A DNA stretch of 64,000 nt from Parcubacteria group bacterium (lineage in GTDB: Bacteria > Patescibacteriota > Minisyncoccia > Moranbacterales > UBA2206), in the NCBI GenBank assembly GCA_041661275.1, contig JBAZUU010000002.1:33206-97205 (forward strand), in the 5' to 3' direction. The notes below the pieces were generated by a model. It saw only the letters and a program-made list of their open reading frames with translations. It ran no database searches and was not told where the DNA came from. Below, piece by piece: positions 3,356 through 58,551 of this stretch; the stretch's first letter is position 1; every line of letters begins with the position of its first letter. Both the position numbers and the translations under genes were made by a program.

Positions 3356-4069
3356 ATGGAAAAAGAACTGGAAAATGTGCCAGCTCACGTAGCGATCATT
3401 CCCGATGGCAACCGCCGCTGGGCGAGAGGCAAGGGAATGAAGCCGTGGGAAGGGCACGAAGTGGGAGCGAAAAATTTTGAAGTTCTGATAAAGCATTCGC
3501 TTAAAAAAGGCATAAAGTGTCTGACTATTTGGGGTTCGTCCATAGACAATCTGACTAAACGTCCATTTGATGAAAAGCGGGCCCTTCTTGATATATATAG
3601 TCGGTATTTTAAAAGGCTGTTGGATGGCAACGAGATCCATGAAAATGAAGTGCAAGTGAATGTCATTGGTCGGTGGGAAGAACAGTTTCCGGAGTCGCTC
3701 AAAAAAATAATCTATGAAGCCATGGAAAAAACCAGGCACTACAAGAAAAGGATGCTTAATTTTCTTTTGGCTTACAGTGGAACTGATGAAATGATTTTGG
3801 CAATCGAGTGTATTAGCAGCAAGTATGAAAAAGGCGTGAAAATTACGCCGGAGCTGATAAAGGAAAACCTTATGACCAGGGGTTTACCACCGGTCGACTA
3901 TTTGGTGCGTACCGGTGGAGAACCGCATAACAGCACAGGATTTATGATGTGGGATATCGCTGACGCTCAATACTATTTCTCGCCCGAACTTTTTCCGGAC
4001 TTTGATGACAAAAAATATGAAGAAGCGTTGGAAGAATACGCGAGACGTCAGAGGAGATTTGGAGGCTGA
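3356..4069 (+). CDS. uppS: Undecaprenyl diphosphate synthase (cis-prenyltransferase)
   Basis: HVAIIPDGNRRWA signature and overall UppS-like sequence. Confidence 0.9.
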   Translation: MEKELENVPAHVAIIPDGNRRWARGKGMKPWEGHEVGAKNFEVLIKHSLKKGIKCLTIWGSSIDNLTKRPFDEKRALLDIYSRYFKRLLDGNEIHENEVQVNVIGRWEEQFPESLKKIIYEAMEKTRHYKKRMLNFLLAYSGTDEMILAIECISSKYEKGVKITPELIKENLMTRGLPPVDYLVRTGGEPHNSTGFMMWDIADAQYYFSPELFPDFDDKKYEEALEEYARRQRRFGG

Positions 4070-4185
4070 ATAAAATTTTCAATTTGAAATTTTAAATTTA
4101 AAATCAAATCTTAATTTAAAATTTTAAATTAAATCATTAAAAATTTATTTCAAATTTCAAATTAAAAATTTAAAATTTTAATCAC

Positions 4186-5423: not shown

Positions 5424-5497
5424 CTTCCTCCTCTCCCTTCGGGAGAGGATGTCAGCCAAATTTTTTCTTAAAAATTTTGGCTGACAGGAGAGGGGAC
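5424..5497. repeat. GC-hairpin palindromic repeat unit (family 1): CCTCTCCC-loop-GGGAGAGG, then a TGTCA...TGACA hairpin, then GGAGAGGG
   Basis: cctctcccttcgggagagg hairpin followed by tgtcagccaaa...tttggctgaca hairpin and ggagagggg. Near-identical units are at 9663-9726 and (in inverted orientation) 26625-26673. Confidence 0.7.
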
Positions 5498-7112: not shown

Positions 7113-7746
7113 CAAATTTATGAGTAAGCTGGTTAATGAGTTGATAAAACAGGGATATCTTAAGTCCGACCTGATTATTGACGCCTTTTCTGAGATCAGC
7201 CGGGTTGAATTTGTTCCGCATGAATTGGAAAAGGAAGCAGAAGCGAACATCGCCCTCCCTATCGGTTATGGGCAAACCATTTCTCAGCCATTGACAGTGG
7301 CGTTTATGCTGGAACTTCTTGATCCAAAAAGAAGCCAAAATGTCCTGGACATTGGTTCCGGTTCTGGCTGGACAACCGCCCTTCTTTGCTATATAGTTGG
7401 GCGACATGGAAAAGTTACGGCTATTGAGCGAAAAGAGGAGCTTAAAAAAATGGGAGAAAAAAATACCGATAAATATGGATATCTCCGAAACGGAAAAGAT
7501 GGCATCGCTGAATTTTTTGTAGGCGATGGGACAAAAGGATTCAAAAAAAACGCGCCGTATGATAGGATTCTTGTATCTGCTTCGACTGAATGCGTCCCCA
7601 ACGATCTCAAAGAACAATTAAAAGTTGGAGGAAAGATGGTTGTCCCGCTTCGTCATAGTATTTGGTATATGGAGAAGAAAGGGGATAATGATTTTTACAA
7701 AGAAGAATATCCTGGGTTTGAGTTTGTACCGCTCATCGAAGACTAA
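7066..7746 (+). CDS. pcm: Protein-L-isoaspartate O-methyltransferase
   Basis: GYGQTISQP, VLDIGSGSGW and PYDRI motifs. Probable true start at 7120 (MSKLVNEL). Confidence 0.8.
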   Translation: MEREPATLSFRLWGYNKFMSKLVNELIKQGYLKSDLIIDAFSEISRVEFVPHELEKEAEANIALPIGYGQTISQPLTVAFMLELLDPKRSQNVLDIGSGSGWTTALLCYIVGRHGKVTAIERKEELKKMGEKNTDKYGYLRNGKDGIAEFFVGDGTKGFKKNAPYDRILVSASTECVPNDLKEQLKVGGKMVVPLRHSIWYMEKKGDNDFYKEEYPGFEFVPLIED

Positions 7747-7854
7747 AATTTGTAATTAGAAATTTTTAATTTTTAATGAATTTCTAATTACTAAATTTTA
7801 AAATTTTAAATTCAATAAAAATTTCAAATTAAAAATTAAAAATTACGAGTAAGG

Positions 7855-9505: not shown

Positions 9506-9564
9506 AATAGCTGCGGCTGGGAGCGTCATTCCTGGCCGCGGTTTTTGTTTTGGCTTTTAGTATT

Positions 9565-9726
9565 CCCTCTCTCCCCTTGGGAGAGATGTCACGATTCTTA
9601 TCGTGACAGAGAGGGTGCTATGTAAAACGGAAAAATTAAAGTTTTGTGAATTTAATTTAGAACCCTCTCCTGTCAGCCAAAATTTTAAGAAAAATTTAGG
9701 CTGACATCCTCTCCCGAAGGGAGAGG
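9565..9726. repeat. Composite family-1 element: two hairpin-pair units in inverted orientation flanking ~47 bp
   Basis: Left unit ccctctctccccttgggagagatgtcacgattcttatcgtgacagagaggg. Right unit ccctctcctgtcagcc...ggctgacatcctctcccgaagggagagg is near-identical to the reverse complement of the 5424-5497 unit. Confidence 0.7.
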
Positions 9727-9739
9727 AGGAAGAATGAGG

Positions 9740-19268: not shown

Positions 19269-19718
19269 ATGAATTGTCCATTTTGTAACAATCAAGAAAC
19301 AAAAGTAGTAGATTCACGGGATACTAGTGATGGAAAAATAACCCGCAGACGTCGTGAATGCTTCAAATGCACTGCCCGGTTTTCCACTTATGAAGAAATA
19401 GAGCTTTTACGACTGGCCATCGTCAAAAAAGACGGTTCAAAAGTTGATTATGATAAGTGTAAAATCGAAGCGGGGATAAAAAAAGCATTGGAGAAGCGGC
19501 CAATCACTCAAGAAAGATTTGCCAAACTCATGGGAGACATCGAATATGATATGCGGTCGATGGAAAAGCCGGAAATAACCACCAGAGAAATCGGAAAAAT
19601 GGTGCTCAAAAAACTGAAAGAACTCGACGAAGTCGCTTATGTGCGATTTGCGAGCGTCTATAAATCATTCGGATCGATAGAGAGTTTCAAGAAAGAATTA
19701 GATACGTTTGACAAATAG
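19269..19718 (+). CDS. nrdR: Transcriptional repressor NrdR
   Basis: MNCPFCNNQETKVVDSRDTSDGKITRRRRECFKC zinc ribbon plus ATP-cone. Confidence 0.9.
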   Translation: MNCPFCNNQETKVVDSRDTSDGKITRRRRECFKCTARFSTYEEIELLRLAIVKKDGSKVDYDKCKIEAGIKKALEKRPITQERFAKLMGDIEYDMRSMEKPEITTREIGKMVLKKLKELDEVAYVRFASVYKSFGSIESFKKELDTFDK

Positions 19719-19722
19719 AAGA

Positions 19723-19837
19723 TAGTTGATTGGAAAATAGAAAATAGTTCAGGAAAAAAGAAATAGGAGAATGGAAAATCAAATTTCTAATTTCCACTTT
19801 CTTAAGCCATTTTCCTTTTTCTATTCAACTAATTTCT
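19723..19837. repeat. Imperfect palindromic intergenic element, family 'agttgattggaaaatag...gttcaggaaa...ccattttc...tattcaactaatttc' (copy 1)
   Basis: Related copies at 28201-28330 (opposite orientation) and 46171-46286. Arms are partially self-complementary. Confidence 0.65.
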
Positions 19838-19871
19838 TTATAATATTTTTTAATAATCTAATTTAATTGTT

Positions 19872-25088: not shown

Positions 25089-26684
25089 GTGACCAAATCA
25101 AAAGTATTTTTTATTTTATCATTGGGTTTTATCGGGGGTGTTTTTAGTGCCTCTTTTTATTATCCCAGTCTGATTGATAATTATTATTTATTAATTTTAG
25201 TTTTGCTAGCTGTTATAATTCTAGCTATTTTTTACAAAAAACCGGCGATGATGGCCGGATTTTTTATATTATTTTTTATTTTTGGTATACACTTGACGGA
25301 AAAAAGACTGGAAGTGGTGAAAAATATAAAAGAAGATGATTTTTCGGGGGAGGTTGTGGTAATAGGCGAGCCAACAATATCAGGCAGGCAACAAAGAATG
25401 GTTGCTTTTCCCAAGATCCAACCTTTGGAGCAGCTCCCAAGGTTGAACCTTGGAACTGATTCAAGATTTTTAATAACCGCTGGAATTTTTCCTGAATATA
25501 AATATGGAGATGTTTTGAGAGTTGATTGTAAATTGGAAATTCCAAAGAATTTTGGACGAGGTCCTTCGACTGCGTCCGACTTGCGGTCGGACTCCGCTCA
25601 GGACGAATCCTCCGGATTCGATTACAAAATGTATCTAGCCAAAGACGGGATTTATTATCTTTGCAATAATCCTAAAATAGAAGATCTTAATAGAAACGAA
25701 GGAAATAAATTTTACGCGGCGATATTGAATATTAAAAATAAATTTAATGACAATATAATGAAGCTGATGCCGTCGCCGCAGTCGGGGTTGCTTTCGGGAT
25801 TATTAATCGGAGGATCGGGGCTACTTTCTAAAGACTATCAAAATTATTTTTCTCTCACCGGCACAACGCACATCGTAGCAGTGTCCGGATACAATGTAAC
25901 AATTGTCGCGGAATATCTGATGCTTCTGGGACTTTTTATCGGTCTCTGGCGGCAGCAAGCCTTTTGGTTTGCGGCTATTGGAATAATTTTTTTTGTAATT
26001 TTAACCGGCATGCCGTCTTCGGCCGTTCGGGCGGGAGTGATGGGGATTCTTCTCATTTGGGCGATGAAGAACGGGCGATTGGCTAACGCGCAAAATGCTA
26101 TCATATTTGCGGCGGGAGTTATGCTATTGGCAAATCCATTGTCATTGCGTTGGGATGTCGGATTTCAACTGTCATTTTTGGCGACACTGGGGATCGTTTA
26201 TGTTTATCCGATATTTAATGAATATCTTATGAAATTAGACGCGATGAATCGCGTCTCTACGATTGCGGAAATATTATTTCTTACACTATCGGCGCAGGTT
26301 TTTGTTTTGCCGATATTGATGATTAATTTTGGAAAATTGTCTCTCATTTCACCTCTGGCTAACGTCCTGATTTTGCCCATTATTCCGCTCACGATGCTCA
26401 CCGGATTTATAGCTATCCTTTTTAGTTTTATCATTCCGCCCATCGGTCAAGTCTTCGCCTGGTTGGCCTTTTTGCCGTTGAAATATGAAACGATGGTAAT
26501 AAAATTTTTGGCCAGTCTAAAATATTCCTCGGTGGAAATTTCCAATTTTTCGTGGATTGGAGTGGTTTTGTGGTATATAATTTTAGGAGGAGGGGTAGTT
26601 TTGATTAAAAAGAAAATAACAAATCCTCCTCTCCCCTTGGGAGAGGATGCCGAGTCTTCGAGGCAGGAGAGGGCTCCTAATTAA
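25089..26684 (+). CDS. comEC: ComEC/Rec2 competence channel protein (DUF4131 + competence domains)
   Basis: Multi-pass membrane protein. GYNVTIVAEYLM and competence-domain similarity. Last 19 codons and the stop are contributed by repeat element C. Confidence 0.8.
   Translation: MTKSKVFFILSLGFIGGVFSASFYYPSLIDNYYLLILVLLAVIILAIFYKKPAMMAGFFILFFIFGIHLTEKRLEVVKNIKEDDFSGEVVVIGEPTISGRQQRMVAFPKIQPLEQLPRLNLGTDSRFLITAGIFPEYKYGDVLRVDCKLEIPKNFGRGPSTASDLRSDSAQDESSGFDYKMYLAKDGIYYLCNNPKIEDLNRNEGNKFYAAILNIKNKFNDNIMKLMPSPQSGLLSGLLIGGSGLLSKDYQNYFSLTGTTHIVAVSGYNVTIVAEYLMLLGLFIGLWRQQAFWFAAIGIIFFVILTGMPSSAVRAGVMGILLIWAMKNGRLANAQNAIIFAAGVMLLANPLSLRWDVGFQLSFLATLGIVYVYPIFNEYLMKLDAMNRVSTIAEILFLTLSAQVFVLPILMINFGKLSLISPLANVLILPIIPLTMLTGFIAILFSFIIPPIGQVFAWLAFLPLKYETMVIKFLASLKYSSVEISNFSWIGVVLWYIILGGGVVLIKKKITNPPLPLGEDAESSRQERAPN
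25437..25453. repeat. REP-like palindrome CCAAGGTTGAACCTTGG inside the comEC reading frame
   Basis: Identical palindrome flanks the RAYT gene at 49526-49550 and 50232-50258. Here it encodes ...LPRLNLGT... in frame. Confidence 0.7.
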
Positions 26685-26773
26685 ATTCGCAAAACTATAA
26701 GCTTGTTACTGTTTCACCAAGAGCCCTCTTTGTCACGATAAGAATTGTGACATCTCTCCCAGGGGGAGAGAGG
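26625..26773. repeat. Composite family-1 GC-hairpin element (two inverted units) spanning the comEC stop
   Basis: cctcctctccccttgggagagg...gagaggg and ccctctttgtcacgataagaattgtgacatctctcccagggggagagagg. The right unit is nearly the reverse complement of the 9565-9615 unit. Confidence 0.7.
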
Positions 26774-26980
26774 AAAGAAAAAAGACAATAAAAAAATCCC
26801 CGATTCTTAACCGCGGCGGCGGCGAAAGTCGGGGGCTAATCCCACCATGGATCGTTCCAGATCAGATGGGCGATGATATGAAAAATAATGTCACTTAGAT
26901 TGTATATCATATCATGATTTCACTAAAAAATCAAGCGCTCTCATACGATAAGCTAAAATTCTCCTTAACCAAGCCAAAAT

Positions 26981-27811
26981 ATGCCTAATCGAAAAGCCCT
27001 ATATTTAATCCTCCTGACTCTTGCTATCATTGCCGCTATTTTGGCGGGGATTATTTGGTATCAGCAAAAACAAGAAATGAAAGTGGTTTTTTTTGATGTG
27101 GGACAAGGGGATTCCATTCTGATTGAGCAGGGAAGTAATCAGATTTTGATTGATGGTGGACCGGACGGAAAAAAAGTAATGGAAAAATTGGGCGAATATG
27201 TACCGTTTTGGGATAGGAATATAGAAGTGGTGATAGCGACTCATCCGGACGAAGACCATATTGACGGGCTCATTGATGTCATGGAAAATTACAATATTGG
27301 TGAAATAATCGATAATGGAGCTGATGTAGACAGTCAGGTTTATAAAAAATATCAGGACGTAATCTCGCAAAAAAATATCAATCGTATCGAGGGAAAATCG
27401 GGAATGGAAATAAAACTGGCGGATAATACAAAACTTTCTATTTTATCTCCTGATGGAACGCAAGACAAAAATAACCCGAAAGATACAAATCTTTCGAGCA
27501 TCGTTTCTAAACTAACTTTCGGTGAAAATAGTTTTTTATTTACTGGCGATTTTCCGACAGAAGGCGAGCAAGATTTATTTAGTAAAAATATCGATTTACG
27601 CGCGCGAGTGCTGAAAGTAGCTCATCATGGGTCAAAATATGCAACAAGTGACGAATTTCTAGATAAAGTTAACCCACAAGAGGCAGTAATATCCGTTGGG
27701 AAAAACAATAGATATGGACACCCGGCAGAGGATGTGATAAGCAGATTGGAAGCGCATAAAATTAATATAAAAAGAACCGATGTATCCGGAGATATCGAGT
27801 ATCAATTTTAA
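26981..27811 (+). CDS. Metallo-beta-lactamase fold protein, ComEC C-terminal-like (ComEC/Rec2-related)
   Basis: N-terminal transmembrane helix. FFDVGQGDSILIE, HPDEDHIDGL, LKVAHHGS MBL motifs. Confidence 0.75.
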   Translation: MPNRKALYLILLTLAIIAAILAGIIWYQQKQEMKVVFFDVGQGDSILIEQGSNQILIDGGPDGKKVMEKLGEYVPFWDRNIEVVIATHPDEDHIDGLIDVMENYNIGEIIDNGADVDSQVYKKYQDVISQKNINRIEGKSGMEIKLADNTKLSILSPDGTQDKNNPKDTNLSSIVSKLTFGENSFLFTGDFPTEGEQDLFSKNIDLRARVLKVAHHGSKYATSDEFLDKVNPQEAVISVGKNNRYGHPAEDVISRLEAHKINIKRTDVSGDIEYQF

Positions 27812-27912
27812 ATTTGAAATTTTAAATTTGAAATGAATTTTAAATGACTAAATTTGAAATTAAAGCATTAAAAATTGATTAAAAATTTTAAATTAAAAAT
27901 TAAAAATTACAG
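27812..27912. repeat. AT-rich 'aaatttgaaat(g)a' repeat element (family shared with 4076-4185, 7747-7851, 58365-58500)
   Basis: aatttgaaatgaattttaaatgac and terminal aaattaaaaattaaaaattac(g)ag shared with the copy at 7747-7851. Confidence 0.5.
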
Positions 27913-27990
27913 AACCAAATATTCTTGCCAAATTGATAATATGGTGATAAGCTGTACTTTGTTGTATAATAAATATAAGAATTCAAATTT

Positions 27991-28194
27991 ATGCCAGTAG
28001 CCAGACAAAGACATACCAAAGCCAGACGCGACAGAGCGAGAGTGTTTTACAAGCTAAAACCGAAAAGTCTTGTGGAATGTTCCAATTGTAGCGCTATGAT
28101 CATTGCCCATACCACTTGCCCAAAATGCGGATTTTATAAGAAAAAAGAAGTGGTGGACACGATGAAGAAAGCGACAAAAAAAGCGAAAAAGTAG
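27991..28194 (+). CDS. rpmF: 50S ribosomal protein L32
   Basis: MPVARQRHTKARRDRAR...ECSNCS...CPKCGFYKKKEV matches the bL32 pattern with a zinc-ribbon Cys pair. Confidence 0.7.
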   Translation: MPVARQRHTKARRDRARVFYKLKPKSLVECSNCSAMIIAHTTCPKCGFYKKKEVVDTMKKATKKAKK

Positions 28195-28200
28195 TTTTTA

Positions 28201-28330
28201 GAAATTAGTTGAATAGAAAAAAGAAAATGGTTTAAGAAATAGGAAATAGGAAATAAGAAATTAGATCATATCTTTTTTCCAACTTCTTCTTTCCTGAACT
28301 ACTTTCCATTTTCCAATCAACTATTTTCCA
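28201..28330. repeat. Imperfect palindromic intergenic element, family 'agttgattggaaaatag' (copy 2, inverted relative to copy 1)
   Basis: gaaattagttgaatagaaaaaagaaaatggtttaagaaatagg ... cctgaactactttccattttccaatcaactattttcc. Confidence 0.65.
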
Positions 28331-28337
28331 ATTTTCT

Positions 28338-28835
28338 ATGGCCAACCGACATCTTTCACGCTCAATCGCCATGCAATCACTCTATGAGTGGGATTTTAAC
28401 GGACGCAAAAAGGAAAGTGTTGATGAGATAGTTGAAAAGAATATCAAAGAATTCGGACCAGGAATGGACGACACTAGTTTCGTAGAAAACCTTGTTAAAA
28501 GTACCATCAAAAATCAGGACAAAATTGATCCACTTATTGAAAAATGCGCTCCGGAATGGCCACTAGACCAAGTGACGATCGTTGACCGGAATATTTTGCG
28601 TTTAGGGATAAATGAACTGCTTTTTGGCAACTATGAAGAAGTGCCTCCTAAGGTGGCGATAAACGAAGCAATCGAGCTGGCCAAATCCTTTGGTGGGGAG
28701 AGTTCCGGAAGATTTGTCAATGGAGTTCTGGGAACGATATACAGGGAGTTGGGCGAGCCGATGAAGGATGATGACTCGAAAAAGCGCAAGGAAATAAGAG
28801 AGAAGGAAAAGGAGAATAAAAAAGAAGAAAAATAA
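28338..28835 (+). CDS. nusB: Transcription antitermination factor NusB
   Basis: [13 protein letters not shown]..., [28 protein letters not shown]-rich C-terminal tail. Confidence 0.85.
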
Positions 28836-28945
28836 TTAATTTTAAAATCACAAATTCAAAATTACAAATCCCAAATAAATTAAAAAATTACAATATTAAA
28901 ATTCAAAACAGTTTATAATTTTGGATTTTAGCCATTGTAATTTAT

Positions 28946-29665
28946 TTGGAATTTGAGATTTTGTATTTGGTGCTTATGGCATTTATGACATCCGATCTAT
29001 CAAAAAAACTGGGAGTAAAATTCAATAATCCCGAACTTTTGCAACAAGCCGTAACTCATCGTTCATACCTTAATGAGCATCGGAGTTATAAACTTGATCA
29101 TAATGAGCGTCTTGAATTCCTGGGAGACGCGGTTTTGGAGTTGGCAGTGACGGAATATCTATATAACAATTATGAAAATCCGGAAGGCGAACTGACCAAC
29201 TGGCGAGCAGCTCTTGTTAATGGAGAAATGCTGGCCAAAATTTCCAAAAAATTGGGCGTGGAAGAATTTCTTATGATGAGTCGTGGAGAAACCAAAGATA
29301 CCGGGCGCGCGCGCCAATACCTTTTGGCCAATGCTTTTGAAGCCATCACCGGTGCTATTTATCTTGACTCCGGTTATGACACGGCCAAGGATTTTATTAT
29401 GAAAAACGTAGTAATCTATCTTGACGAAATAATCGAGAAAAAACTATTCCTAGATCCCAAAAGTCGTTTTCAGGAGGAAGCGCAGGACAAAGTCGGTACT
29501 ACACCGTCCTATCGCGTTTTGGAAGAAGCGGGACCTGATCACGACAAGAAATTTGTCGTTGGAGTATTTTTAGACTCGGAAATGATCGCCAAGGGCGAGG
29601 GGCCGTCCAAGCAGGAAGCTCAAAGGCAGGCGGCAGAGAAGGGATTGGAAGTGAAGAGTTGGTAA
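28946..29665 (+). CDS. rnc: Ribonuclease III
   Basis: ERLEFLGDAVLELAV RNase III signature plus a C-terminal dsRBD. Confidence 0.85.
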   Translation: MEFEILYLVLMAFMTSDLSKKLGVKFNNPELLQQAVTHRSYLNEHRSYKLDHNERLEFLGDAVLELAVTEYLYNNYENPEGELTNWRAALVNGEMLAKISKKLGVEEFLMMSRGETKDTGRARQYLLANAFEAITGAIYLDSGYDTAKDFIMKNVVIYLDEIIEKKLFLDPKSRFQEEAQDKVGTTPSYRVLEEAGPDHDKKFVVGVFLDSEMIAKGEGPSKQEAQRQAAEKGLEVKSW

Positions 29666-29678
29666 ACAAAAACAAAAA

Positions 29679-32048
29679 ATGTTTCTCAAACGCCTAGAAA
29701 TTAACGGCTTCAAATCATTTGCCTCCAAAACCACTTTGGATTTTTTGATTGACTCTGAAAACCACAAGACTCATGGGATAACAGTAGTGGTCGGACCAAA
29801 TGGAAGTGGCAAATCCAACATTGCCGATTCTTTGCGTTGGGTGATGGGGGAGCAATCAATGAAACATCTGCGCGGAAAAAAATCAGAGGACATTATTTTT
29901 GCCGGAAGTGGAAAAAAAGCGCGTTTAGGGAGTGCCAAAGTAACTTTATATCTAGACAATTGTGACCAAAAAATTCCCATTGATTTTTCCGAAGTTACCA
30001 TTGCCAGAAAAATTAACCGTTCTGGCGAGGGAGAATATTTTATCAATGGTTCGCGTGTCCGTCTTCAGGATATTACCGATCTTTTGGCCAAAGCTGGCGT
30101 AGGAAAAGAAAGTTATGCCATTATCAACCAGGGAATGGCCGATGCTATTCTTGCCGCCTCGCCACTGGAACGCCGGACGATCATTGAAGATGCAGCCGGA
30201 GTGAAACAATATCAGATCAAAAAAGAAAGGTCTATCCGAAAACTGGATTCAACTCGGGAAAATTTGGAGCGAGTGAAAAGTTTAGTAGAAGAAATAAAGC
30301 CGCATCTTCGAATGCTCAAAAGACAATCGGACAAAGCGGCTAAGAGTGAGGAAATATTTACGAGTCTTAAAGAAAAGCAGATAAAACTTTTCAGTCATCT
30401 TTGGCATAATTTTCGAGACGAGAAACAAATTTTTGATGAAAAAAAAGACGAATTGGGACGAGAGATGATGAATATGCAACGCGAAGTAGATAAACTTTTA
30501 GACGCAATAAACGCGGAAGAAAAGAACAATAAGGAAAATGAGACTCTCGCCGGATTGGAAAAAGATTCTAGGGAAGCTCGGGTGAAATATAATACTCTCG
30601 AGCGAGAGCTGATCATAACAGAGGGACGATTGGAAATTGAAAAAGAGAAGCAAGCTAGCCGGCAAGTCTTGGAGGAGATAAAAATAACCAGTATTCCTGT
30701 CGATTCTCTTTATGTCAAAAAAATAGTGGAAGAAATCCGGATCGACCAGGAAAGGTTGATAGAAAAATTACAAAAAGTGGAAAAGATTGAAGAACTCCAA
30801 GATATCAAAGAATTTGCCCGAGCGATCCAACAAAGACTATTTGAGCTCAAAGCAGATATTGAAAAAGGGAAAAAGGAGCAGAATTCCGAGAGCGAGGCTC
30901 TCGGAGCCGCTCCAAGAGCCTCGCTCTCGGATGCTTCTGAAATTAAGAAAGACAACTCGGTAATTTTAGAATTGCAAAATAAATTAGTCCAGTTGAGAAA
31001 GGATATAAAGGATCTGGAAAACAAAATTAGAGAAATCGATGAATCGAGAGAAAAAGAAATAACGGAAGACAGAAATCGACGCCAGAAATTTTTTGAGATT
31101 GAAAGAAAAATGAGGACAAAGCAGGATGAACTGGGAAAACTGAAAGATCAATTCAATGATGCCAAAATTTCTTTGGCGCGCGTGGAAGTGCGAGAGGAAG
31201 ATTTGAGGACGGATGTAAAATCAGCGCTCAAAATAGAACCCGAGGAACTTTCAAAAAATAATGAAGAAATCAATCGGGAAGAGTTGGAGCGAGAAGTGGC
31301 GCGTCTGAAAATCCAACTGGAACAGATCGGCGGAATAGATCCGATGGTGATAGATGAATATAGGGAAACTCAAAAACGTTTTGATTTTCTCTCCACTGAA
31401 TCAGAAGATCTGGAAAAAGCTATTGGTAGTCTTCGGGAGATAATAAAAGAAATGGAGCAAAAAATTTCTAAGGAATTTGAGCTGGCTTTCACCGAGATCA
31501 ACAAAGAATTCACCAAATACTTCAAAATAATTTTTGGTGGCGGCGCAGCGCATCTGACAAAAGTTAAGGTAAAAAATCGGAAGTTTAAGATTAAAAAAAC
31601 CGAAGAAGAATCAGATTTAGAAACTGAAAATATAGAGCAAAACGGTGATGACAATGTAGAAGATGTGGAAAATGAAAAGGATGAGATCGGAATCGATATC
31701 TTTGCTTGTCCGCCAGGAAAAAGAATAACCAGCCATGCTATGCTTTCGGGAGGTGAACGGTCACTTACTTCTCTGGCTCTTCTCTTTGCTGTCATTGCCC
31801 ACAACCCACCACCATTCTCTATTTTGGATGAAGTAGAGGCGGCACTTGATGAAGCTAATTCCAGACGTTTTGGCCGGATACTTTCAGAGCTTTCCAAAAA
31901 CACTCAATTTGTCATTATCACTCATAACCGTGAAACCATGCGCCAGGCGTCGATGCTCTATGGGGTGACGATGGGGGAAGACGGAATTTCCAAACTTCTT
32001 TCGGTGAGATTAGACCAAGTAGGACAAGGAGGGAAAATTATAAAATAA
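29679..32048 (+). CDS. smc: SMC-like chromosome segregation ATPase (short form, 789 aa)
   Basis: N-terminal Walker A GPNGSGKSN, long coiled coil, C-terminal LSGGERSLTSLALLFA signature and Walker B ILDEVEAALD. Confidence 0.8.
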   Translation: MFLKRLEINGFKSFASKTTLDFLIDSENHKTHGITVVVGPNGSGKSNIADSLRWVMGEQSMKHLRGKKSEDIIFAGSGKKARLGSAKVTLYLDNCDQKIPIDFSEVTIARKINRSGEGEYFINGSRVRLQDITDLLAKAGVGKESYAIINQGMADAILAASPLERRTIIEDAAGVKQYQIKKERSIRKLDSTRENLERVKSLVEEIKPHLRMLKRQSDKAAKSEEIFTSLKEKQIKLFSHLWHNFRDEKQIFDEKKDELGREMMNMQREVDKLLDAINAEEKNNKENETLAGLEKDSREARVKYNTLERELIITEGRLEIEKEKQASRQVLEEIKITSIPVDSLYVKKIVEEIRIDQERLIEKLQKVEKIEELQDIKEFARAIQQRLFELKADIEKGKKEQNSESEALGAAPRASLSDASEIKKDNSVILELQNKLVQLRKDIKDLENKIREIDESREKEITEDRNRRQKFFEIERKMRTKQDELGKLKDQFNDAKISLARVEVREEDLRTDVKSALKIEPEELSKNNEEINREELEREVARLKIQLEQIGGIDPMVIDEYRETQKRFDFLSTESEDLEKAIGSLREIIKEMEQKISKEFELAFTEINKEFTKYFKIIFGGGAAHLTKVKVKNRKFKIKKTEEESDLETENIEQNGDDNVEDVENEKDEIGIDIFACPPGKRITSHAMLSGGERSLTSLALLFAVIAHNPPPFSILDEVEAALDEANSRRFGRILSELSKNTQFVIITHNRETMRQASMLYGVTMGEDGISKLLSVRLDQVGQGGKIIK
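30887..30930. repeat. Palindromic element (family 2: GAGCGAGGCTCTCGGAGCCGCTCCNAGAGCCTCGCTC) in frame inside smc
   Basis: cgagagcgaggctctcggagccgctccaagagcctcgctctcgg encodes SEALGAAPRASLS. A second copy is intergenic at 33731-33773. Confidence 0.7.
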
Positions 32049-33713: not shown

Positions 33714-33730
33714 CAGAAATATTTGTTCTC

Positions 33731-33773
33731 CTGGAGCGAGGCTCTCGGAGCCGCTCCCAGAGCCTCGCTCCAG
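33731..33773. repeat. Family-2 palindromic element, intergenic copy
   Basis: ctggagcgaggctctcggagccgctcccagagcctcgctccag. Confidence 0.7.
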
Positions 33774-33783
33774 GACGGGGTTC

Positions 33784-46159: not shown

Positions 46160-46170
46160 ATTAAATTAGA

Positions 46171-46286
46171 AAATAGTTGATTAGAAACTGGAAAATAGTT
46201 CAGGAAAATGGAGATTAGAAAATAGATATCCTGTTTCCAATTTCTTTTTTCTTAAACCAATTTCTATTTTCCATTCAACTAATTTC
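46171..46286. repeat. Imperfect palindromic intergenic element, family 'agttgattggaaaatag' (copy 3)
   Basis: tagttgattagaaactggaaaatagttcaggaaaatggagattag ... cttaaaccaatttctattttccattcaactaatttc. Confidence 0.65.
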
Positions 46287-46299
46287 TAAAACGAAAGAG

Positions 46300-49521: not shown

Positions 49522-49525
49522 AGCT

Positions 49526-58125: not shown

Positions 58126-58551
58126 TTGTTCACCTTCCTTTCTAGAGGATCCGCCTAATTTTTTTCAAGCAAAGCTCGAAAAAATTTTGGCGGAAAAATA
58201 AATTATTAAGGTGCTTACGTTGAAGCTTGCGGCTCTTGCGAGCGTCTCATATTAAATTCTAACAAAATCTGAACTGACGTCAACTAGACAAGCGGGTTAA
58301 AATAGGGCTTAATATGGGACATAGCACAGAATATTGGCGCCTAGGAAAGTTCCAGCTTCTTCGGAGTAATAATTTAAAATTTGAAATTTATAATTTGAAA
58401 TGAATTTGAAATGATTTAATTTTAAATTTAAAATTAAGATTTGATTTAAAATTATAAATTCTAAATTTAAAATTATTTTGAAATATTTTTTTCTGGTTGT
58501 GGTATTATCTTATGTTTTAGTTCTTTTTGAAAAAATATTTTTGAAAAAAAG

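Follow-up and report, generated by a model that had tools for sequence, protein, structure and literature searches.

A hairpin repeat forms the end of comEC at the boundary between apparently long-separated ComEC channel and nuclease genes in a member of the Moranbacterales

The window analysed here is a 64,000-nt stretch of DNA from a Parcubacteria group bacterium (Moranbacterales; assembly GCA_041661275.1, contig JBAZUU010000002.1, positions 33,206 to 97,205) in which the competence protein ComEC is encoded by two adjacent genes with a repeat element between them. The first gene, comEC (25089-26684, plus strand), encodes 531 amino acids and represents the N-terminal two-thirds of the split protein, an OB fold (DUF4131) and the Competence channel. 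Its open reading frame (ORF) matches PF03772 (Competence) with E = 1.4e-51 over profile positions 1-269 of 270, and PF13567 (DUF4131, OB fold) at 33.4 bits against a cut-off of 31.6. The second gene (26981-27811, plus strand) starts 296 nt past the end of the comEC ORF and encodes a membrane-anchored metallo-beta-lactamase (MBL) nuclease of 276 aa (PF00753, Lactamase_B), the C-terminal third of ComEC. The comEC polypeptide itself lacks the MBL domain, which this separate ORF encodes. Behind its first residues, MPNRK, the MBL protein has a hydrophobic stretch of 22 residues that places a transmembrane (TM) helix at about residues 7-28, and it carries the motifs HPDEDH, TGD, HHGS and YGHP, the first being the local form of HxDxDH, the ComEC-type metal-binding motif of the MBL domain (PMC12455585). 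The likeness to ComEC/Rec2 (TIGR00361, 663 positions) lies in this motif and in the joint coverage of the profile, at positions 70-394 by the comEC ORF and 430-663 by the MBL ORF, with neither ORF alone reaching the cut-off (97 and 142 bits vs 190).

The end of the comEC protein reads ...KKKITN-PPLPLGEDAESSRQERAPN. Its last 19 codons and the TAA stop (26625-26684, plus strand) lie inside a 151-nt repeat, copy C (26624-26774, plus strand) of a family that we refer to as family 1. The comEC sequence leading up to the repeat is ...AAAATAACAAA, and the first base of the repeat motif CCTCCTCTCCCnnnGGGAGAGGATG, at 26625, is also the start of the tail, a peptide of which is PPLPLGEDAESSR. In the alignment, a tail of the PPLPLGED... 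kind is found on the window protein only; the homologues end 3-10 residues past the last helix and the LIKKKI sequence. Short, acidic and proline-containing, the tail is most probably a tolerated passenger rather than a functional segment, and it would be cytoplasmic, since it follows KKK behind the last helix.

Copy C consists of a left module, an AT-rich middle and a right module. The left module comprises hairpin 1 (26626-26646), ATG, a degenerate hairpin 2 and then CAGGAGAGGG; the middle holds the comEC TAA; and the right module, with CCCTCTTT, hairpin 3 (26732-26751) and hairpin 4 (26753-26773), repeats the left one imperfectly in inverted orientation. The left module contains no stop codon in any of the six frames. 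Three exact copies of CCTCCTCTCCCnnnGGGAGAGGATG are present in the window (at 5427, at 9729 on the minus strand and at 26625), vs none in 100 shuffles. The second of these belongs to a full element, copy B (9564-9731, minus strand), which starts 10 nt past the stop of a co-oriented minus-strand gene and in which 9566-9607 (minus) matches the right module of copy C (26732-26773). The first belongs to copy A (5424-5495, plus strand), a left module only, just past the stop of a co-oriented gene. The predicted folds of copies C and B are stable (-75.5 kcal/mol, z = -8.4, and -80.8 kcal/mol, z = -10.3), and, when single-stranded, the element pairs its left end with its right in an outer stem that surrounds a three-way junction. 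An Rfam scan of the whole window at gathering thresholds returned two tRNAs only and no match to the element, and an E-value scan of 26550-27050 gave nothing better than E = 0.3. An identity as integron attC was rejected because housekeeping genes flank the element and its ends do not read GTTRRRY; an identity as CRISPR or retron RNA was rejected in the absence of an array and of a reverse transcriptase.

A preliminary description of this DNA had placed the last 19 comEC codons and the stop in the repeat, and a separate MBL gene with its own TM anchor about 300 bp further on; both are borne out, the former exactly to the base. It left a choice between truncation of an ancestral three-domain ComEC by the insertion and a lineage that normally has a split ComEC, of which the element merely recoded the tail. 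The homologues support the latter. The best 120 ComEC homologues, from Moranbacteria and Parcubacteria metagenome-assembled genomes (MAGs), are 51-77% identical to the window protein, span 423-548 aa and carry DUF4131 and/or Competence, and Lactamase_B is found in none of them (0/120). Conversely, each of the 120 best MBL homologues, 255-312 aa long, is a stand-alone protein, and their N-terminal helix and start are conserved. A search with the MBL protein against 1.84 billion 50%-cluster representatives reached further: among the best 150 matches, 118 are stand-alone and align from the N-terminus, and 21 are fused ComEC proteins of 623-831 aa, with about 40% identity to the window MBL protein.

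Relatives without the repeat retain the two genes in close contact. The comEC-MBL junction is an 8-nt overlap in L004 (ComEC identity 67%), a 19-nt overlap in L006 (62%) and a 3-4-nt gap in L008, L113 and L114 (70-73%). The order comEC-MBL-rpmF-nusB-rnc-smc found in the window is kept or nearly kept in these five (L006 has no rpmF call, and L113 does not extend far enough to reveal the downstream order). A metagenome scan with the MBL protein returned two loci only, at 74% identity, and both have abutting genes; they illustrate the ancestral state and do not represent an empty site. Because repeat-free relatives have the same split, with abutting or overlapping genes and an unrelated C-terminus, the split appears to predate the repeat; this is the very pattern that the preliminary description had set against truncation. 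Every close relative examined is split, the repeat-free ones included, and truncation of a three-domain ComEC by the insertion is thereby refuted. On these sequence comparisons the split is to be regarded as ancestral to the lineage and not as caused by the repeat. The ancestral overlap or abutment of the two genes suggests that they were translationally coupled. The channel ends KKK and the MBL protein starts MPNRK, which by the positive-inside rule would place the split point in what would otherwise be a cytoplasmic loop.

The split of ComEC is partly known. NCBI and JGI name the stand-alone MBL gene "ComEC/Rec2 family competence protein", and two-domain variants have been published (PMC6299819, PMC12455585). 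The window comEC resembles these "DC" variants without Lactamase_B, a protein of DUF4131 and Competence only being a recognised profile (PMC6299819, PMC12455585), but differs from them in that the MBL domain has not been lost and lies in an adjacent gene with its own TM helix. A separate adjacent nuclease gene is not discussed in those two papers on ComEC (PMC6299819, PMC12455585). The stand-alone MBL gene should be annotated as the third ComEC domain. The lineage offers a natural experiment in which the nuclease domain acts, if at all, as a separate membrane-anchored polypeptide, and both the split and its invaded junction bear on recent work on the interplay of ComEC domains (PMC12455585).

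The repeat at this junction is not peculiar to the window. We scanned one genome per species with the left-hairpin motif, which yielded at least 101 stretches; all counts for family 1, here and below, are among the matches listed. Family-1 elements are found at the comEC-MBL junction of four other Moranbacteria genomes (L101, L082, L046 and L062). The ComEC of L101 (57% identity) has the tail ...KKII-PPLP, with its stop in the loop of hairpin 1, and the right end of the element, GGGAGAAGGGGA, lies 8 nt before the MBL ATG. The ComEC proteins of L082, L046 and L062 (49-50% identity) have the tail SSSPxGRGCPEDR, read in another frame and ended by a TGA from CAGGTGAGG. Five full copies have the upstream stop inside the element, and in all five the upstream gene is comEC. 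At least three independent insertions at this junction seem likelier than a single ancient one, because the frames, insertion points and subfamilies differ and because intermediate lineages keep intact overlapping genes. An overlapping comEC-MBL pair has no intergenic space, which would be why insertions fall within the last codons of comEC.

Elements of other kinds have entered the same junction. The comEC gene of L001 (ComEC identity 77%) runs into an unrelated GIY-YIG element and acquires the tail SVIPSDPERAKRVEGESRDLP; a partial contig, L110 (MBL identity 89%), carries the same element, the end of comEC not being on the contig. A third kind of element (ACCACTGATTAA...TAATCAGTGGT) gives the comEC stop in L003 and L111 (76-78%), where the terminator described below is truncated. 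The junction evidently tolerates repeated invasion by mobile hairpins.

Both of these elements have features of their own. The GIY-YIG element (L001 1615-2150, L110 1-355) has inverted ends, CCGTCATCCCGAGCG...TCGAGGGATCTGCC at both ends, and an ORF of 85 aa for a GIY-YIG protein. The third repeat (L003 5476-5597, L111 2683-2972) runs ACCACTGATTAACAC...GGTGATAATCAGTGGT over about 290 nt and contains nested hairpin modules. It supplies the stop of comEC on one contig and that of a Dus gene on another contig of the same sample; either the repeat really occupies both places or contigs were joined by way of it during assembly.

Nearly all of the motif stretches belong to Moranbacteria/Patescibacteria MAGs, at least 23 in number, which carry several copies each. 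The 111 family-1 copies comprise 43 full elements of 109-241 nt and 68 left modules only. Hairpin 2 occurs as 32 sequence variants in 101 copies, nearly all of which have an intact stem of at least 5 bp; it is built as TGTC-xxx-loop-x'x'x'-GACA, with the variable pairs GCG/CGC, CGG/CCG, ACG/CGT, TCG/CGA and ATG/CAT. Full copies are strongly oriented, 33 having a co-oriented upstream gene and 5 having their right end facing the 3' end of a gene. The element usually begins 0-18 nt past the upstream stop, and 8-40 nt often separate it from the next start. The orientation of the element tracks transcription, at least in the window, because the minus-strand copy B follows a minus-strand gene. The flanks of the 43 full copies often read ...ATAT / element / TAT..., though not at window copies B and C, and there is no empty site for comparison.

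Left modules also occur within genes. At least about 35 of the 86 left-only copies counted are inside ORFs of 100 aa or more. Modules of 45-50 nt (about 48) are in frame, on either strand, in dnaE (L085, L089 and L095), dnaX (L015 and L035), priA (L009), ligA (L056 and L093) and argS (L031). The host genes for DnaE, DnaX, PriA, LigA and ArgRS were confirmed with Pfam, and the modules occupy orthologous positions in several species. The peptides that they encode include PPLPxGEDVRRTGEG and PLLSGVxDILSQxERRN. Segments encoded by the repeat, such as PPLPxGED..., SSSPxGRGCPEDR and PLLSGVxDILSQxERRN, should not be mistaken for protein features specific to a lineage.

Some members of the family are composite, and its core is also found outside the Patescibacteria. 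Six elements of 220-241 nt (L017, L046, L082, L086, L097 and L099) have two tandem left modules, and some composites hold an extra nested CCTGCCTGCCGGTAGGCAGG hairpin; such a structure indicates modular build-up or insertion of one element into another. The 45-nt core of hairpin 1, ATG, hairpin 2 and CAGGTGAGGG is also present in two Phycisphaeraceae of the Planctomycetota (L075, L081). Two Verrucomicrobiae (L037, L105) keep hairpin 1-ATG and GTGAGGG and lack hairpin 2, and in Bauldia (L019) and another alphaproteobacterial locus (L108) the spacing before GTGAGGG is longer and diverged. In Bauldia (L019) it makes up the inverted ends of a repeat about 200 nt long, and Archangium (Myxococcota, L067) has a match to the motif. 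These matches outside the Patescibacteria are unlikely to be random, because about 0.07 matches would be expected by chance for a 22-base exact pattern in 596 Gb of uniform composition.

The element does not account for the whole distance between comEC and the MBL gene. The preliminary description had it separate the two, which is partly right: its share is about 150 of the 296 nt, and a terminator block and about 135 nt of genome-specific sequence make up the remainder. The block, AAAAAGACAAT (26778-26835, minus strand), lies beyond the element in the comEC-MBL spacer and consists of a two-tier GC hairpin (26798-26835) followed by a U-run (plus-strand A-run 26790-26796). It is 88% identical to L001 2169-2224 and L110 377-425, where an A-run and a GC hairpin follow the GIY-YIG element and a minus-strand ORF of 90-114 aa ends at the hairpin. 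AUUUUUUUAUUGUCUUUUUU comes after the hairpin on the minus strand, and no U-tract is present on the plus strand. An additional GC hairpin had been announced for 26800-26980, with its role left blank. The hairpin is there, and its conservation in L001 and L110, together with the minus-strand U-run, identifies it as a predicted intrinsic terminator of the minus strand.

The genome-specific part of the spacer (26836-26980) has promoter-like sites on both strands and a minus-strand ORF of 24 codons. Its roughly 135 nt show no blastn or tblastn similarity to any fetched locus and no Rfam match. Consensus scans placed a promoter-like site on the minus strand at 26934-26906 (TTGATT, a 17-nt spacer and TG-TATGAT), with the conserved terminator about 100 nt downstream, and another on the plus strand at 26888-26915. 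The hydrophobic 24-codon ORF (26910-26836, minus strand; MIYNLSDIIFHIIAHLIWNDPWWD) ends exactly at the hairpin. A tblastn search found no remnant in the window of the relatives' 114-aa antisense ORF, which itself matches no Pfam family (best E-value 0.15). The minus strand at 26836-26940 could, very tentatively, be a small antisense RNA or peptide gene that replaced this ORF. We keep a minus-strand small RNA at 26790-26935 as a possibility and do not claim it: the fold of the genome-specific spacer gives a z of -2.4 only, and the terminator is the only part that is conserved.

Taken together, the observations make it highly probable that a repeat landed on the end of comEC and recoded its tail, and that ComEC was split ancestrally in the lineage. 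An element of about 150 nt, non-autonomous, bounded by inverted ends and containing several hairpins, similar to transposable elements of the miniature inverted-repeat type (MITEs) or repetitive extragenic palindromic (REP) sequences, would have inserted a few codons before the native comEC stop. Translation would then run for 19 codons through the left module to the TAA in the AT-rich centre, because the left module has no stop in any frame. The rest of the 296-nt spacer would be older than, or independent of, the insertion of copy C: the minus-strand terminator would be inherited from an ancestor with an antisense ORF between comEC and the MBL gene, and this ORF, kept in the closest relatives, would have been replaced in the window by the unique sequence of about 135 nt. 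With the genes no longer contiguous, the MBL gene would be expressed via read-through or from weak signals of its own, and in this clade translation of the nuclease gene would no longer be coupled to that of the channel gene. Full copies normally go directly after the stop of a co-oriented gene, and the comEC-MBL junction would be a recurrent landing site for hairpin elements. Three points weigh against this account. We found no empty-site allele of the exact lineage that would fix the insertion point, any target-site duplication and the age. In the fetched loci, neither a transposase nor an autonomous copy was found between the modules, the longest left-right pair being 780 nt; the larger repeat context in genome ELA282 likewise contains no transposase. 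Finally, the element could be selected and not merely tolerated, given its strongly biased orientation, its repeated arrival at one junction and the compensatory changes in hairpin 2.

Other explanations of the junction differ in what they take the repeat to have done. Truncation of a three-domain ComEC, with separate re-expression of the nuclease domain, fits the local picture, in which the repeat sits exactly between both parts, and fused proteins with about 40% identity to the MBL protein do exist; it is nonetheless extremely improbable given the repeat-free relatives, which share the split, the overlapping or abutting genes and a short native C-terminus, and given the conserved helix and start of the 120 stand-alone MBL homologues. 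We attach equally little probability to an assembly artefact, that is, a chimeric join or a collapsed repeat in the MAG. Logan contig L117 does begin inside the element, and the contigs of L003 and L111 have a common repeat at their ends, but the NCBI (262 kb) and ENA (98 kb) contigs, from different sources, are 100% identical across the whole junction. The independent ENA assembly is identical to the window over 25781-29011 (the NCBI side of this comparison is GCA_041665805.1, contig JBAYID010000001.1), and for that reason we do not regard the junction as artefactual.

A less easily dismissed, though still doubtful, alternative is that family 1 is no neutral passenger but a selected, orientation-specific intercistronic RNA element, similar to REP sequences and bacterial interspersed mosaic elements (BIMEs) or to BOX elements. 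On this view the transcript of the upstream cistron would carry it at the 3' end, where it would influence how stable the mRNA is or how it is processed, or hand on translation by way of its purine-rich right end; between comEC and the MBL gene it would adjust how much channel is made relative to nuclease. The 33 vs 5 orientation bias, with copy B following the direction of transcription in the window, the narrow distances in many copies to the upstream stop (0-18 nt) and the next start (8-40 nt), and the maintenance of the hairpin 2 stem through at least 32 variants all point this way, as do the G-T pairs on the top strand of the element where stems are imperfect and the position of the right end, GGGAGAAGGGGA, 8 nt before the MBL ATG in L101; the RNA-level effects of ERIC and Correia provide precedents (PMC10969869). 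In the window, however, 200 nt lie between the right end and the MBL start, which leaves no possible role in coupling here, and hairpin 2 of copy C is degenerate. The many half-modules within coding regions, on either strand, look like selfish spread, and template switching from arm to arm can yield palindrome changes that appear compensatory without selection. A broader and rather unlikely reading makes family 1 an undescribed, orientation-specific intercistronic element of Moranbacteria that also colonises essential genes and has a conserved recognition structure. It may be inserted or retained directly after stop codons and may fit between coupled genes because its left side provides a stop and its right side a purine-rich stretch for ribosome binding; its in-frame presence in essential replication and translation genes may be the counterpart, in streamlined genomes of the candidate phyla radiation (CPR), of the Rickettsia palindromic elements (RPEs) discussed below; and the core in other phyla hints at a recognition structure for a widely distributed enzyme.

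Insertion of a repeat into the end of a gene that was already separate from its nuclease partner, the explanation that we favour, has counterparts elsewhere. RPEs are stop-free, short palindromic repeats found in frame in conserved genes, to which they add peptide segments (PMC10969869). Family 1 is alike in that half-modules are in frame in DnaE, DnaX, PriA, LigA and ArgRS and a full copy gives the ComEC tail. It differs in its host, which belongs to the CPR and is not an alphaproteobacterium; the likeness is one of behaviour, and sequence homology is not expected; in-gene copies are moreover mostly half-modules of 45-50 nt and not whole elements of about 150 bp, and full copies are mainly intergenic and strongly oriented. 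The likeness to MITEs (Correia/NEMIS, ERIC, Coxiella QMITE1) is one of form: family 1 is small (109-241 nt) and multi-copy, has inverted ends and a long stem, lacks an ORF, and its full copies are mostly intergenic and sometimes fused to gene ends. Among the features by which MITEs are recognised, terminal inverted repeats, small size, no ORF and many copies are found, with more than 100 copies in at least 23 Patescibacteria genomes. ERIC at the 3' ends of genes and the processing of Correia by RNase III show what repeats of this kind can do at the RNA level (PMC10969869). Family 1 departs from MITEs in that each end is itself a double hairpin, and neither a parent insertion sequence nor a transposase was identified in the fetched loci.

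REP/BIME and REPIN-RAYT systems resemble family 1 in having hairpin singlets and inverted doublets that form a larger hairpin, and in a placement in 3' untranslated or intercistronic regions with a defined orientation (PMC3116915). REP and REPIN sequences are extragenic, whereas many family-1 left modules are intragenic, and the units of family 1 are longer (two hairpins, about 48 nt). No RAYT (Y1 transposase) gene came to light, although no search aimed at PF01797 was made in the window or the loci. Pneumococcal BOX elements are modular, with end modules that form inverted repeats and a variable middle. Family 1 shares this modular build, including the composites with two left modules (L017, L046, L082, L086, L097 and L099). 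It is unrelated to BOX in sequence and host, and the likeness rests on the general architecture of BOX and on its mention in a review (PMC10969869).

That repeats recode gene ends or sit in frame is a known phenomenon, described for MITEs and RPEs; we searched the literature on Patescibacteria and Moranbacteria for repeats resembling MITEs, REP sequences or RPEs and found none described. The interest lies mostly in the family as a whole and less in the single ComEC tail: in very small CPR genomes, several families of hairpin repeats fill spacers, rewrite gene ends and sit in frame in essential genes.

The window comEC contains two more hairpin-repeat segments, both in frame in the OB-fold domain (25411-25453 and 25553-25620). 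A palindrome, CCAAGATCCAACCTTTGGAGC/GCTCCCAAGGTTGAACCTTGG, accounts for one of the two; it encodes ...QLPRLNLG..., and its family recurs at 49522, 49738 and 50229. A GC-rich triple hairpin, which encodes GRGPSTASDLRSDSAQDESSG, makes up the other. Both inserts are missing from most homologues, and P0016 has a similar insert at the second site. A 477-aa ComEC call in ENA was considered as an insert-free polymorphism and rejected: it results from a different start call (M55), and the DNA is identical.

Repeats of other families surround the locus. An AT-rich family of about 110 nt (about 10% GC), present in both orientations, adjoins the MBL gene directly on its 3' side at 27797-27905 and recurs at 4066-4182, 7740-7848 and 58364-58479. 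A palindromic family with AG-rich and CT-rich arms fills the rpmF-nusB spacer (28186-28336) and is also found at 19710-19851 and 46163-46291; in genome RA.bin150 (L042), a family-1 element lies in the spacer just upstream of nusB. Two GC-rich palindromes of 47 nt (TCCGAGAGCGAGGCTCTCGGAGCCGCTCC...), at 30885-30931 and 33729-33775, are 85% complementary to each other and lie 2.8 kb apart.

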